64,000 bases of DNA, from NCBI RefSeq assembly GCF_016026235.1, contig NZ_CP065613.1; one strand, 5' to 3'. Of this stretch, positions 3,045-46,604 are shown piece after piece. A program made the translations under genes and the position numbers. Below the pieces are notes generated by a model, which was given only the letters and a program-made list of their open reading frames with translations, was not told where the DNA came from and did no database searches. Origin of the DNA: Escherichia coli. Lineage in GTDB: Bacteria > Pseudomonadota > Gammaproteobacteria > Enterobacterales > Enterobacteriaceae. Positions within the stretch are counted from its first letter, which is position 1; every line of letters begins with the position of its first letter.

Positions 3045-3590
3045 TTATTTTAAGGAAAGCAACTGCTCTACGGTCATGTTTTTAATTGCGCCCCGGTTTA
3101 CAAGAGTCCAGCCCTGTTTTTCCAGATAAAACCGGAAAGTCTCCAGGGTACAGACCAGTGCGCCATCAGGAACGGTTTCGGTGAATTCGACATTGCCGAA
3201 TTTGTCGAAGTGAACAACCAGAGTGCGACCATCACCCGGAATCATCTTGTCAGCAGGTGGGGTGTTATTCTGGCGCAGTTCGGCCTCCATGCGGTCGAAC
3301 TCAGCAATGTAGGCTTCCTTGAATGTGGCGGCTTTTTTGCCCGTGAAGCCCATCACCAGGAAAACGAAGCCGTTTTTGGTGATTTGGTAGGCGTTATAAG
3401 AATTGCCGCGGTGTTCGAATTTAACCCGCGAAAAGTTGCTGGTTAAAAATAGTTCAGAACATTCGAGGGATTCTATTTTTTGAACAACATGGTGATGCTG
3501 CTTGCCAAAAAACTCAGCAATCGAAATAGAAGTAGTGACGGCGCGACCATTTTCGATGGTTACGTCAGGGTGAGAAAGGGTAGTAGCCAT
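3045..3590 (-). CDS. Rha-family phage regulatory protein
   Basis: Rha-like N-terminal domain from MATTLSHPDVTIENGRAVTTSISIAEFFGK; ATG at 3590. The 98-codon in-frame extension up to 3884 is low-complexity and contains a terminator, so not taken as coding. Confidence 0.55.
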   Translation of the reverse strand: MATTLSHPDVTIENGRAVTTSISIAEFFGKQHHHVVQKIESLECSELFLTSNFSRVKFEHRGNSYNAYQITKNGFVFLVMGFTGKKAATFKEAYIAEFDRMEAELRQNNTPPADKMIPGDGRTLVVHFDKFGNVEFTETVPDGALVCTLETFRFYLEKQGWTLVNRGAIKNMTVEQLLSLK

Positions 3591-3754
3591 AATGACATCC
3601 TCAAGTGATAAGTTAATTAACTCACCAGCAGAGGTGCTAATCTCATGGGTGGTGAGACGCACAGGGTTAGCACTACCGGTCACTCGAGAACCCGGCCAGC
3701 CTTGCGGCTGCCCCGCACGCCTCACCATAATTTGAATGTGGCTGTGCATTACGC

Positions 3755-3781
3755 ATAAAAAAACCGCTTCAGCGCGGTTAT
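3755..3781 (-). terminator. Rho-independent terminator (minus strand)
   Basis: Minus-strand hairpin AACCGC-GCTGAA-GCGGTT followed by TTTTTTT. Confidence 0.4.
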
Positions 3782-3905
3782 GCGCTCGAGTAACTTTCGG
3801 GGTGCTAATCCCGGCACCCGTTTTATGAGGTGCAGGTGCACTATAATTCCACCCGTTCTGGTTTTCAATAGCTACATTCAACATTTTCTCTTTCCTTTCA
3901 TCACC

Positions 3906-4060
3906 GAAGTGAATTTTGTGATGCGGTGCCTGGTGCCTCCAGGTGACGTTAACCAGTTAACAATTACAGTCGGCTTTCCCACCCAAAACAATAAGGACTA
4001 ACATGACTTTTAACTGTGCCGCGTGCGCTTAGCCGCATTCACCGCATCACAAAATTCACT
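3906..4060. repeat. Perfect 22-bp inverted repeat pair (3906-3927 and 4039-4060) flanking 111 bp
   Basis: AAGTGAATTTTGTGATGCGGTG at 3906-3927 and its exact reverse complement at 4039-4060; encloses palindrome GTTAACCAGTTAAC. Confidence 0.7.
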
Positions 4061-4291
4061 TTAAAAAGGGCGGACATCAGCCAGCAATTAAACCGATGCC
4101 GCCAACTGGTACTTCACACAGCAATGTCGTTATTTACAACCGGAAGCGCACTCCCACCATTTAAATTTCACAGACAAGACCGACTCTTTATGAATACCGG
4201 AAATGCGCCTTCGTGTTGTGCCCGGTTTTATTTCACCACCTCCGGGCTTTGGTGGTATCTTTACTGAAGTTCTCACACAACCAGTAAGGAA

Positions 4292-4615
4292 ATGAATATG
4301 CCAACGTATCTCGCCAGAGTAGAACTATATAATGCTGAGCCAGAGGATTACGAAGGGCTTCATAAATATATGCTCTCACTAGGATTCAGGAGAACGATCC
4401 CCCATGGAGATGGTTCGTATAATCAACTCCCGGACGGAACTTATGTTTCCGAAAAGGGCGGTGATATTTATCAAATTCGCAGCCAGATATCTGACTATGC
4501 AGACCGACTATCCGGGTATCGCGCGTCTGTTTTGTTTGCGAATTCAGTCAATGCGCATGGTATTTATACCCCGCCAAGACCCGGTGAATATCCTGCACGG
4601 CCTTCTGCTTTGTAG
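4292..4615 (+). CDS. hypothetical protein
   Basis: 107-aa ORF with AAGGAA Shine-Dalgarno before ATG. Confidence 0.4.
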   Translation: MNMPTYLARVELYNAEPEDYEGLHKYMLSLGFRRTIPHGDGSYNQLPDGTYVSEKGGDIYQIRSQISDYADRLSGYRASVLFANSVNAHGIYTPPRPGEYPARPSAL

Positions 4616-4767
4616 AAGGCTTCTTCGCTATCATAATCGCCAGATTCCAGCGCTTCTTTAGCCAGCCAGATGCGTGCCCCAGTGCCTGCATTTGGCTCCA
4701 GTTGCTGGAGGCGTTTTGCATCTTCTAGGAGTAGAGCGATAACGTGTTTTAATTCTGTCTCGTTCAT
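4564..4767 (-). CDS. hypothetical small protein (67 aa)
   Basis: ATG at 4767 preceded by AGGTGAG; track start at 4776 is a GTG. Confidence 0.35.
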   Translation of the reverse strand: MNETELKHVIALLLEDAKRLQQLEPNAGTGARIWLAKEALESGDYDSEEAFYKAEGRAGYSPGLGGV

Positions 4768-4768
4768 T

Positions 4769-4924
4769 TTACTCACCTGAATGTCTTCCCAACCAACGAC
4801 GTGCGCCAGCTTCGGTTTTAAACGTTTTGCTTTTGGTATACGTCATGGCGGTGAATGTGCCGTCTTGATTGGGAAACACGCCACATACCAGAGATTCGTT
4901 GTTGCCAAGATCGATAGTATTCAT
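4769..4924 (-). CDS. small prophage protein (YdaG-like), 52 aa; alternative start at 4987
   Basis: ATG at 4924 with AGGGGA upstream; immediately downstream of repressor gene as ydaF/ydaG are in Rac. Confidence 0.4.
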   Translation of the reverse strand: MNTIDLGNNESLVCGVFPNQDGTFTAMTYTKSKTFKTEAGARRWLGRHSGE

Positions 4925-5229: not shown

Positions 5230-5649
5230 TTATTCCGGTGGGGGATTATCTTTAATCCTGCCTCTCAAATATTTTTCTACATACTCATCGATTTCTTTTA
5301 GCCGGACTTCAAATAGCTCAATCATTCGTTGTTGTTCTGAGCCCGGTAGCTGGTTAAACAACTCAAGAAGTTTTCGTTGGGATTCATTTAACCACAATTC
5401 AGAAGATTCCTGTTCTCCAAAGAGGAGCTCAGGAGGAGATATGCCAAGTGCCTTTCCCAATACGACAGCGTCATGTACTCCAACATTTCTGCTGCCCGCC
5501 TCATAGTTACCTATACGCGATTGCGTCCATCCGCAGATTTCAGCAAGTTTTCCTTGAGATAAACCAAGCTTCTGCCTGCGCTCTTTAAGACGCATTGCAA
5601 TTTTGTCATTGAGCCTACTAGCGGCAATTTTTTCGTTTTCTTTTTCCAT
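5230..5649 (-). CDS. HTH (XRE-family) prophage repressor, cI/RacR-like; no S24 peptidase domain
   Basis: HTH motif LGLSQGKLAEICGWTQSRIGNYE; divergent from cro-like gene; AAGGA Shine-Dalgarno. Confidence 0.7.
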   Translation of the reverse strand: MEKENEKIAASRLNDKIAMRLKERRQKLGLSQGKLAEICGWTQSRIGNYEAGSRNVGVHDAVVLGKALGISPPELLFGEQESSELWLNESQRKLLELFNQLPGSEQQRMIELFEVRLKEIDEYVEKYLRGRIKDNPPPE

Positions 5650-12298: not shown

Positions 12299-12479
12299 AA
12301 GGAAACAAAACAGAAACAGCAATTGCCGTTACCTGTTGTTACCATGGCAAGTAAACGTATCTCAGGCGAGCGCATTGCGCCGTTCTGACGCAGATAAACT
12401 AGCCTGGATAGATGGTGCTGGCAATAAAAAATAGCGTTTTCTTATCGGTGTCGGTAAGATTGCTGCGGGTGCTTGAGGC

Positions 12480-12635
12480 TGTCTGCCTCGGGCATGTCAC
12501 TGTAAGGCAGACAGAGAAAAGCCCCAGTTAACATTACGCGTCCTGCAAGACGCTTAACATTAATCTGAGGCCCAATCTATGTCTCACAAATGTAGGTTAG
12601 CCTCTTACGTGCCGAAAGGCAAGGAGAAGCAGGCT
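12480..12635. promoter_or_regulatory. hok mRNA leader with stem-loops; expected location of sok antisense RNA
   Basis: Inverted repeat GTCTGCCT...AGGCAGAC (12481-12512); 9-bp hairpin GGCGGGAGA-GTAA-TCTCCCGCC downstream at 12800-12822. Confidence 0.35.
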
Positions 12636-12791
12636 ATGAAGCAGCAAAAGGCGATGTTAATCGCCCTGATCGTCATCTGTTTAACCGTCATTGTGACGGC
12701 ACTGGTAACGAGGAAAGACCTCTGCGAGGTACGAATCCGAACCGGCCAGACGGAGGTCGCTGTCTTCGTAGACTACGAATCTAGAGAGTAA
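12579..12791 (+). CDS. mok: mok-like in-frame extended reading frame overlapping hok
   Basis: 70-aa ORF ending at the hok stop, as MokC extends HokC in E. coli. Confidence 0.4.
   Translation: MSHKCRLASYVPKGKEKQAMKQQKAMLIALIVICLTVIVTALVTRKDLCEVRIRTGQTEVAVFVDYESRE
12636..12791 (+). CDS. hok: Hok/Gef-family type I toxin
   Basis: MKQQKAMLIALIVICLTVIVTALVTRKDLCEVRIRTGQTEVAVF is near-identical in pattern to HokD/RelF; AAGGAG Shine-Dalgarno. Confidence 0.8.
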   Translation: MKQQKAMLIALIVICLTVIVTALVTRKDLCEVRIRTGQTEVAVFVDYESRE

Positions 12792-14794: not shown

Positions 14795-14883
14795 CTCAAT
14801 CTGTTATCCGGGGCTATATTCCTCACGCGCCAGCAAAATCTGGCGTCGGGATTGGCGTCCCGGATGTTTACGGAGCGATATGA

Positions 14884-14904
14884 GACGCGCCCGCGTCTTT
14901 TTTC
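14884..14904 (+). terminator. Hairpin plus T-run downstream of Q (possible tR'-like terminator)
   Basis: GACGCG-CCC-GCGTC followed by TTTTTT. Confidence 0.4.
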
Positions 14905-15066
14905 ATATCGTTTGCACAGTCTCATTCGCGATTTATGGCGGGCTGTGTGGGGGAGCCGAAAGGCTCGCCGGTTTCCGTACCCGGTTACGCCAACCCTGCA
15001 CAGTTCGCCACCAGTTCGATTGGCGTCGTCGGTGGCGATAATTTCCAAATGTACGGAGTTATCGTT

Positions 15067-15624
15067 ATGACCACTCAAATCTCTGTTGAAACTCTCTCCC
15101 CGATCACCCATAACCAGATTCCTGTTATTACCACCGAACTTTTGGCGCAGCTTTACGGCACTGAGCCGGTGCGTATTCGCCAGAATCATCATGAGAACAA
15201 AGTACGCTTCGTTGAAGGGAAACACTTTTTCAAAGTTGTTGGTAATGACCTTAAAGAATTGCGGGTAGCTTTAAACTACTCACAAAATCCCATCTCTCCC
15301 AAAGCCCGCTCCCTCATCCTCTGGACAGAACGAGGCGCAGCACGCCACGCCAAAATGCTCGAAACCGATCAGGCGTGGGATGTGTTCGAAAAACTGGAAG
15401 ACTGCTATTTCAGTCAAAAGGATCCGTCAACGCCAGTTTCATGCCAGAAAAGTTACGACACGCGAGTTCTCTGTTATCAGAGAGGCGGTGTCACTGTTTC
15501 CACAATTCAGTTACGGGATGATGATATTGTTATTTCCCTTGAGTCATGGCTGGAACTGGCGAGAGCCAATGGTTGGTTTGTTGTTCGCAGAGATAAACTG
15601 GTGGAAAGGTTGATGCAGCTTTAA
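15067..15624 (+). CDS. ORF6N/Bro-N-like antirepressor-family protein
   Basis: ATG at 15067 after GGAG; N-terminal IPVITTELLAQLYG...KVRFVEGKHFFKV resembles ORF6N domain. Confidence 0.5.
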   Translation: MTTQISVETLSPITHNQIPVITTELLAQLYGTEPVRIRQNHHENKVRFVEGKHFFKVVGNDLKELRVALNYSQNPISPKARSLILWTERGAARHAKMLETDQAWDVFEKLEDCYFSQKDPSTPVSCQKSYDTRVLCYQRGGVTVSTIQLRDDDIVISLESWLELARANGWFVVRRDKLVERLMQL

Positions 15625-15832: not shown

Positions 15833-15909
15833 GGCCCTTTAGCTCAGTTGGTCAGAGCGAGCGACTCATAATCGCCAGGTCGCTGGTTCAAGTCCAGCAA
15901 GGGCCACCA
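15833..15909 (+). tRNA. tRNA with CAU anticodon (Met or Ile2, ileZ-like)
   Basis: Manual cloverleaf: acceptor GGCCCTT/AAGGGCC, anticodon loop CTCATAA, 3' CCA. Confidence 0.8.
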
Positions 15910-15910
15910 A

Positions 15911-15987
15911 CCACCACTAGCTCATCCGGATAGAGCATCAACCTTCTAAGTTGACGGTGCGAGGTTCGAGTCCTCGGTGGTGGGCCA
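15911..15987 (+). tRNA. tRNA-Arg (UCU)
   Basis: Acceptor CCACCAC/GTGGTGG, anticodon loop CTTCTAA, T-loop TTCGAGT, 3' CCA. Confidence 0.75.
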
Positions 15988-15989
15988 GC

Positions 15990-16065
<76 letters not shown>

Positions 16066-16068
16066 TAT

Positions 16069-16143
<75 letters not shown>

Positions 16144-46239: not shown

Positions 46240-46548
46240 TGAATAAATCCTTTAGTTATTTTATTTGCCTTTTATCCCCATTTCGGGGAGTGAAAACATC
46301 CTAAAGGAGAAGTTCAGTTAGCCGATAAATATCATTTGTTACGCCTTAAGTAAAACCTTAATCAAAAAATTCCTCTGAAATGATAATAAGTCTGGTGAAT
46401 GTATCGAAGATAATACATACAAAATAAAAATTATACTTTTAATTTTCTATACGTTATTCTGCGCGGGTTATATGCCTTTATTGTCACAGATTTTATTTTC
46501 TGTTGGGCCATTGCATTGCCACTGATTTTCCAACATATAAAAAGACAA

Positions 46549-46580
46549 GCCCGAACAGTCGTCTGGGCTTTTTTTTAGAA
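46549..46580. terminator. Bidirectional hairpin terminator between ydbK and ompN
   Basis: AAGCCC...GGGCTT hairpin flanked by A-run and T-run. Confidence 0.45.
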
Positions 46581-46604
46581 TTGGATAATCCTTATCCAGA
46601 GCAT

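Follow-up and report, generated by a model that had tools for sequence, protein, structure and literature searches.

A perfect 22-bp inverted repeat in the early-left operon of a Rac-like Escherichia coli prophage acts as RNA, on the minus strand, and probably forms the closing stem of a conserved prophage RNase III hairpin that follows a KilS/DicF-like small RNA, a reading to which we assign a probability of roughly 0.75. The helix, conservation, covariation, strand, homology and synteny of the unit are observations. Its closest relatives, namely the RNase III site of K-12 Qin, the KilS RNA of Rac, IsrK and C4, are already characterised or named. Throughout, the window is the whole stretch of 64,000 nucleotides that was analysed, and the copy it carries lies ahead of an IsrK-C4-Rha cassette.

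The repeat consists of two 22-nt arms, AAGTGAATTTTGTGATGCGGTG at 3907-3928 and, at 4040-4061, its exact reverse complement; the arms are 100% complementary (22 of 22 pairs formed) and 111 nt apart. A preliminary description of this DNA had recognised the pair from the letters alone and placed it at 3906-3927 and 4039-4060, one base too far to the left. By simple arithmetic, a perfect 22-bp repeat within 500 nt is expected by chance about 2e-6 times in 64 kb (~3e7 position pairs x 4^-22), and the arm 22-mer had neither a second copy in the 64-kb window, allowing up to three mismatches, nor a match in 100 shuffles. The repeat was thus confirmed as real and non-random. Folding of the minus-strand RNA from 4125 to 3895, a check that the description had proposed, gave -85.9 kcal/mol against -66.1 +/- 4.6 in shuffles (z = -4.3), with the 22-bp helix, hereafter helix P1, in both the minimum free energy and the centroid structures. 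Helix P1 (4061-4040 with 3928-3907) closes a 155-nt domain that encloses three further hairpins, P2, P3 and P4. The sRNA and the domain comprised the following features, in the order of leftward transcription:

4063-4157, minus strand: KilS/DicF-like small RNA with a DicF-like terminator hairpin as its 3' half (stem 4100-4073, U-run 4067-4063)
4118-4068, minus strand: DicF-like Rfam match, 28.6 bits (gathering score 48)
4056-3915, minus strand: STnc100-like Rfam match, 34.3 bits, E = 3.5e-5 (gathering score 47)
4040-4061, minus strand: P1 5' arm, AAGUGAAUUUUGUGAUGCGGUG, with a putative RNase III cut near 4049/4048
4039-4037, minus strand: junction AAU, directly preceding P2
4021-4036, minus strand: P2 hairpin GCGGC-UAAGC-GC-A-CGC, identical among dicF-type copies
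3945-3971, minus strand: P3 hairpin, GACUGUAAUUGUUAACUGGUUAACGUC, containing the GTTAAC..GTTAAC palindrome, two central pairs mismatched
3929-3943, minus strand: P4 hairpin CCUGG-AGGCA-CCAGG, its motif CACCNGGAGGCACCNGGCAC found once in the window and 0 times in shuffles
3907-3928, minus strand: P1 3' arm, CACCGCAUCACAAAAUUCACUU, its 3' end a mosaic junction

The palindrome that the preliminary description noticed inside the spacer, GTTAAC-CA-GTTAAC (GTTAACCAGTTAAC), was found at 3948-3961, where it forms the tip of P3. In P4, the G-C to U-A change relative to the CCGGG/CCCGG of other copies was compensatory.

Sequence change in the arms preserved pairing across genera. In an 11-sequence alignment P1 was 97% paired and both bases had changed in 11 of its 22 pairs across Escherichia and Klebsiella copies, against only 31-41% pairing in a control in which the partner strand was slid; in P3, five of eight pairs had changed on both sides. 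Each of the 13 one-sided variant cells in P1 (13/13) was a G.U or U.G on the minus strand, where the opposite strand would have an A.C mismatch; since these wobbles fit the minus strand only, the functional strand is that of the leftward transcript. The long P1 arm also occurred as two unrelated sequences, both forming 21-22 bp: AAGUGAAUUUUGUGAUGCGGUG in Escherichia, and (C/A)AACAGACCUUGCAAUGCAGUG in Klebsiella pneumoniae phages. Some close relatives (Rac and loci L028 and L089) carried a bulged A and a G.U pair in P1. Three readings had been offered for the repeat at the outset, of which a small leftward non-coding RNA came closest, in that the repeat is an RNA helix and 3640-4160 holds four consecutive RNA elements; the other two, paired operator sites and a miniature inverted-repeat element, fared poorly and are weighed below.

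Immediately upstream of the domain, window 4157-4063 was near-identical to KilS, an sRNA of K-12 Rac (b4833, 1418405-1418502 in NC_000913.3) whose annotation directly precedes the Rac copy of the unit and whose 3' half scores 39.1 bits as DicF, under the Rfam gathering threshold. KilS is an Hfq-associated RNA that was verified by northern blot and RIL-seq and is thought to have its own promoter (PMC8175672). The U-run of the window sRNA ends at 4063 and P1 begins at 4061 on the same strand, so that the unit starts directly after a DicF/KilS-type terminator. End to end, the 155-nt unit aligned with the dicF-dicB spacer of K-12 Qin and of phage Tritos, where DicF and DicB are annotated, and over its full length with the K-12 Rac kilS-kilR region at 94% identity. 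The arms of P1 have these equivalents in K-12:

1649441-1649462 and 1649573-1649594: P1 arms in Qin
1418403-1418382 and 1418270-1418248: P1 arms in Rac

A search for further genomic copies, which the preliminary description had suggested, found the unit in 4623 of 5426 complete E. coli genomes (85%), with a median of two copies and up to nine; in 4414 complete genomes a match covered at least 80% of it. The 155-nt hairpin unit was unannotated in every record examined. A retron msr/msd, considered on account of the flanking inverted repeats, was rejected, since no reverse transcriptase gene adjoins the unit and the dicF-dicB spacer is its homologue.

With the Qin hairpin the window copy shares full-length homology, helices P1-P4, a closing helix of 21-22 bp and a start at most three bases past the U-run of the sRNA terminator. 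It differs in that Qin P1 has three G.U pairs whereas window P1 is perfect, and in that Qin has canonical DicF upstream and dicB downstream, whereas the window has a Rac/KilS-variant sRNA and the IsrK-C4-Rha cassette. The Rac kilS-kilR 5' untranslated region is the closest sequence relative, with a near-identical KilS and upstream promoter region and the same prophage backbone: in the Rac-like prophage of the window, ydaE and recE follow downstream and a DicA-like repressor lies upstream. In Rac, by contrast, kilR lies 19 nt past P1, the P1 3' arm is bulged and contains G.U pairs, and the P4 closing pair is broken in K-12 (CCAGA; locus L128, 2439-2656). The 3' third of the window unit is Qin-type, and the sieB position of the window holds a YmfI-like gene.

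The window unit is a recombinant, Rac-type as far as the P3 loop and Qin-type beyond it. Compared with the K-12 Rac and Qin loci (L128 and L004), the 5' strand of P3 was Rac-type (GACUGUAA) and the 3' strand Qin-type (UUAACGUC), with the crossover in the conserved P3 loop; the two central P3 mismatches are explained by this joining of strands, and the core of the window copy may be partly defective as a result of them. A second mosaic junction sat at the outer end of P1 (3907), and homology with dicB-carrying phages ended exactly at 3907/3910, the outer end of the P1 3' arm.

RNase III dependence has been reported by others, for the Qin homolog only. As relayed in later papers (PMC5069750, PMC9438474), Faubladier, Cam & Bouche (1990) found that RNase III creates the 72-nt DicF of K-12 Qin. 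Counting 72 nt from the annotated dicF start (983 in L004) leads to 1054, the 13th nucleotide of the 22-nt 5' arm (1042-1063), a mapping that rests on these secondary citations and on the annotated start. The end thus lies within the 5' arm, and the Qin counterpart of the repeat accordingly agrees with the reported RNase III site. In a table of RNA-seq data from an rnc mutant (Gordon 2017), rnc-dependent entries occur both in dicF-dicB, at 1649470 and marked as known, and in kilR-sieB, at 1418510. They lend weak support, because the counts are low (0 vs 26 and 41 reads), the spacing is coarse (at least 400 bp) and the table contains hundreds of comparable entries. Searching the literature for kilR in connection with RNase III yielded no relevant paper. 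By homology with Qin, and given a perfect two-turn duplex, the window copy would probably be cut near 4049 and 3919.

We propose that leftward transcripts passing the KilS/DicF-like terminator would fold into the 155-nt domain closed by P1, and that host RNase III would cut both P1 strands near their middle. Such a cut would have three consequences. The upstream KilS/DicF-like sRNA would gain an alternative, longer 3' end, like that of the 72-nt DicF in K-12 Qin; the downstream message would be severed from the upstream RNA; and a core of ~130 nt would be released with a closing helix of ~10 bp, which is the usual P1 length in the STnc100-like family. The severed message in the window would be the IsrK-C4-Rha cassette, and elsewhere kilR (Rac), dicB (Qin) or a lambda-Kil-like gene (Klebsiella phages). 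Classical phage RNase III sites include R1-R5 of the T7 early region and, in lambda, the N leader and sib. As is proposed for the element described here, they are long hairpins in early transcripts at which a host RNase III cut separates or retro-regulates neighbours. They lack any sequence relationship to it, and they differ further in that the window helix encloses a conserved domain of several hairpins, which is also known from elsewhere with no long helix around it.

The long-P1 form preceded three unrelated septation inhibitors, dicB in Qin, kilR (phrog_294) in Rac and a lambda-Kil-like gene (phrog_2055) in Klebsiella phage ST405-OXA48phi1.2:

L130, 2501-3195: long-helix form with the Kil-like gene
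L128, 2501-2896: long-helix form with kilR
L004, 1042-1398: long-helix form with dicB

Its position ahead of these genes, and here ahead of an antirepressor, suggests that the unit may be a brake or insulator that acts post-transcriptionally ahead of toxic or otherwise dangerous early-left genes.

The core of the domain is a sub-threshold relative of Rfam STnc100 (RF02076). The outer helix of the STnc100 model aligned on the repeat arms, and model positions 155-206, including the terminator, had no match in the window. Other long-P1 copies scored 28-44.5 bits, and at least nine loci had a match at the corresponding element that was sub-threshold yet independent, as the Rfam model was built without dicF-type sequences. 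We scanned viral contigs with a conserved 20-mer of the unit, which gave at least 120 loci, and compared 120 copies. The architecture common to the matches listed was P1 with a GGUG/CACC end, AAU, P2 with a UNNGC loop and a bulged A, a variable linker, a variable P3, an invariant P4 (CCGGG-AGGCA-CCCGG) and the 3' strand of P1. Among the matches listed, P3 had at least 5 bp in 113 of the 120 viral copies, in 57 distinct stems, and P2 co-varied with STnc100-type P2 (CCCCC-UGUGC-GG-A-GGGG; CCUUUC-UAAGC-GAAAGG) in this set of 120; P1, again among the matches listed, was usually 5-10 bp in the family and 21-22 bp in dicF/kilS-type units. STnc100 and PasD thus share with the window unit the GGUG/CACC end of P1, the AAU junction, the UNNGC loop of P2, a variable, covarying P3 and the invariant P4. 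STnc100 differs in its 5-10 bp P1, 3' tail and own terminator, and in being an independent sRNA of Stx and other enterobacterial prophages; the window unit has a 22-bp P1, lacks a terminator, lies inside an operon and reaches 34.3 of the 47 bits.

Phage records with the core motif numbered 480; they came from Escherichia phages, Stx-converting ones among them, and from phages of Klebsiella, Salmonella, Shigella, Cronobacter and Erwinia. The motif makes up the body of STnc100 in Stx phages, where it lies downstream of stx2B (PMC12370729); STnc100 copies are expressed in lysogens, one of them northern-verified (PMC5331693), EDL933 has 11 copies, and PasD, a relative of STnc100, has RIL-seq targets. 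The same RNA domain, here with a helix P1 of 9 bp, is found in bacteriophages P1 (L126; AF234172, 70080-70200) and P7, 35 nt upstream of tciA; in phage P1 the domain, itself unannotated, belongs to the C1-controlled ban operon, together with an annotated 'dicF-like region' and three tRNA genes. In ST64B the core motif lies in the sb37 leader, downstream of a cI-like gene. A 2026 preprint links STnc100 to PasD and does not mention DicF, and we found no paper that links the dicF-dicB RNase III hairpin with STnc100. This link, which draws on the sub-threshold Rfam scores and the shared helices, appears to be the only new element here.

A broader reading, which we consider less likely than not, takes the ~130-nt core (P2, P3, P4 and the inner half of P1) as an autonomous RNA domain of a large unrecognised superfamily in enterobacterial phages, to which the 22-bp P1 would have been added in early-left operons as an RNase III excision cassette. 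Its members would be STnc100, PasD, the ban-operon element of phages P1 and P7, the ST64B leader element and the dicF/kilS-linked units; the invariant junction and loops might bind a host factor, and the long P1 would, upon transcription of the operon, release the core and gate the toxic gene behind it.

The unit might instead be a stand-alone sRNA gene of the STnc100/PasD type, with its own promoter and Hfq-dependent base pairing, to which RNase III would be irrelevant. The alignment of STnc100 to 4056-3915 with its outer helix on the arms speaks for this, as do the expression of STnc100 copies in lysogens and the RIL-seq targets of PasD. We consider it unlikely, since the score is below the gathering score of 47, the terminator part of the model is unmatched and no terminator follows P1 (no terminator-like site was found between 3907 and 3834 on the minus strand), and since the 22-bp extension of P1 is specific to the dicF/kilS context. 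Nor was a promoter-like site present at 4062-4130 on the minus strand, and there is no room for one directly ahead of P1, because P1 starts one base past the upstream U-run.

Slightly less probable still is that the domain is a cis element altering elongation, either by conferring terminator resistance in the manner of put or by occluding Rho loading on a long untranslated stretch. The conserved multi-hairpin architecture with invariant loop and junction sequences would fit such a role, many members of the family are located in early-operon leaders or 40-90 nt ahead of an intrinsic terminator, and ~500 nt are untranslated in this region of the window. Against it, the domain lies downstream rather than upstream of the KilS/DicF terminator, and the ~22-bp length of P1 would be left unexplained. 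A put-like antiterminator as in HK022, considered on account of the two-hairpin motif near terminators, was rejected: the whole HK022 genome had no match to the conserved 20-mer at up to three mismatches, and putL and putR look unrelated, so that put survives here only as an improbable analogy of function.

Covariation of the arms and strand-specific G.U pairs mean that the symmetry is not explained by protein operators or by the terminal repeats of a transposon, and we regard both as very improbable. Operators for the cI-like or Rha protein were suggested by two identical 22-bp sequences, inverted, in a regulatory-looking region near the repressor gene (5230-5649), but changes in the arms preserve pairing and not sequence, the Klebsiella phages have an unrelated complementary pair, ~1.2 kb separates the arms from the repressor/cro intergenic region, and the homologous site in K-12 serves RNA processing. 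A miniature inverted-repeat transposable element of 155 bp would account for perfect terminal repeats, several copies per genome and a mosaic junction exactly at one end, but the flanks (TTTAA / unit / CGGTG) differ and show no target-site duplication, the window has a single copy, the interior is conserved as covarying hairpins, and all copies examined were syntenic in prophages, with a DicF/KilS-type sRNA or an early-left leader on one side and the following prophage gene on the other.

Downstream of the RNase III hairpin, as we read it, no septation-inhibitor gene (dicB, kilR or kil) directly followed the window unit; the kilR position of Rac was occupied instead by an isrK promoter, IsrK, C4 and Rha:

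3840-3868, minus strand: isrK promoter-like site TTGAAA-17-TATAGT, 10/12 consensus matches
3757-3833, minus strand: IsrK-family sRNA (RF01394), 68.5 bits (gathering score 50)
3809-3802, minus strand: C4 target b1, AUUAGCAC, within IsrK
stem 3779-3762 with a T-run ending at ~3755, minus strand: IsrK terminator, from a terminator scan
3645-3732, minus strand: C4-family antisense RNA (RF01695), 78.6 bits (gathering score 45)
3045-3593, minus strand: Rha-family antirepressor gene, likely start AUG 3593, Shine-Dalgarno GAGGA at 3602-3598

The -10 hexamer of the promoter-like site ends 6 nt ahead of the Rfam start of IsrK (3833). A terminator at 3755-3781 that had been noted upstream of the Rha gene start is real, with its stem and T-run, and belongs to IsrK, because it forms the 3' end of the Rfam IsrK match. 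The GUGCUAA of C4 (3673-3667) is complementary to b1 (3809-3802) and to b2 (3641-3634), the latter just upstream of the Rha ribosome-binding site. The order dicF-hairpin-isrK-C4 recurred in a viral contig (L106, canonical DicF 71.5 bits) and in 63 E. coli genomes.

The 279-aa Rha open reading frame (3884-3045) runs across the IsrK and C4 RNA genes, and the Rha domain (TIGR02681) matched only residues 106-206 of it. The preliminary description doubted that its N-terminal extension is coding, and the doubt holds for 3884-3729, which the promoter and IsrK occupy. The final 46 codons, beginning at AUG 3728, are the counterpart of Gifsy-1 orf45 and may be translated, because orf45, with its start at +107 of the isrK transcript, is a translated frame in Salmonella (PMC4825925). 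The module resembles immI of P1/P7 (c4-icd-ant) and isrK-orf45-anrP of Gifsy-1 (PMC4825925) in its IsrK, C4, b1/b2 targets and downstream antirepressor. It differs in that the orf45-like frame of the window is fused in frame to Rha, whereas Gifsy-1 orf45 ends at an AUGA overlap with anrP, and in that the window module lies in the early-left operon, at the kilR position. RefSeq/PGAP annotates the 279-aa form as 'Rha', reading through IsrK and C4. Four protein families (phrog_6928, phrog_3960, phrog_29966 and phrog_4908) matched only residues ~12-108 of this form, that is, translated RNA genes, and look like spurious families derived from mis-called N-terminal extensions.

Other features of the window were recorded alongside. 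A second c4-a1b1/IsrK/C4 module was found at 14814-15624 on the plus strand (Rfam 52.2, 75.6 and 77.6 bits), where the open reading frame 14935-15624 begins at an AUG inside the C4 5' end and continues in frame into an antirepressor-like protein, as in the first copy (AUG 3728, Rha AUG 3593). Four tRNA genes (15833-16140) adjoin this second module, and a sok antitoxin RNA (118 bits) was placed by Rfam at 12467-12641. The open reading frame 4292-4615 on the plus strand (107 aa; phrog_8894, 1e-29, and a weak YmfI-family match) has no annotation in a RefSeq record that is 100% identical. Located where K-12 Rac carries sieB, it is oriented against the leftward operon and overlaps a convergent open reading frame (4564-4776, minus strand) at the latter's 3' end. 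MicC was found at 46464-46584, and its presence fits a chromosomal location at the Rac locus.

These results do not overturn current understanding, and the feature was largely understood already. The window copy is a Rac/Qin-type recombinant hairpin in a variant context, in which IsrK-C4-Rha replaces kilR or dicB. For annotation, the KilS/DicF-like sRNA, the hairpin domain, IsrK and C4 make four RNA elements in ~520 bp that are covered by the Rha reading frame or left blank in RefSeq, and a unit present in 85% of complete E. coli genomes is missed by Rfam STnc100 at the gathering threshold. The unit connects the abundant STnc100/PasD family with a published RNase III site of DicF and with KilS, an sRNA that was named recently, and the occurrence of its long-helix form before three cell-division inhibitors suggests a post-transcriptional safety catch on toxic prophage genes.
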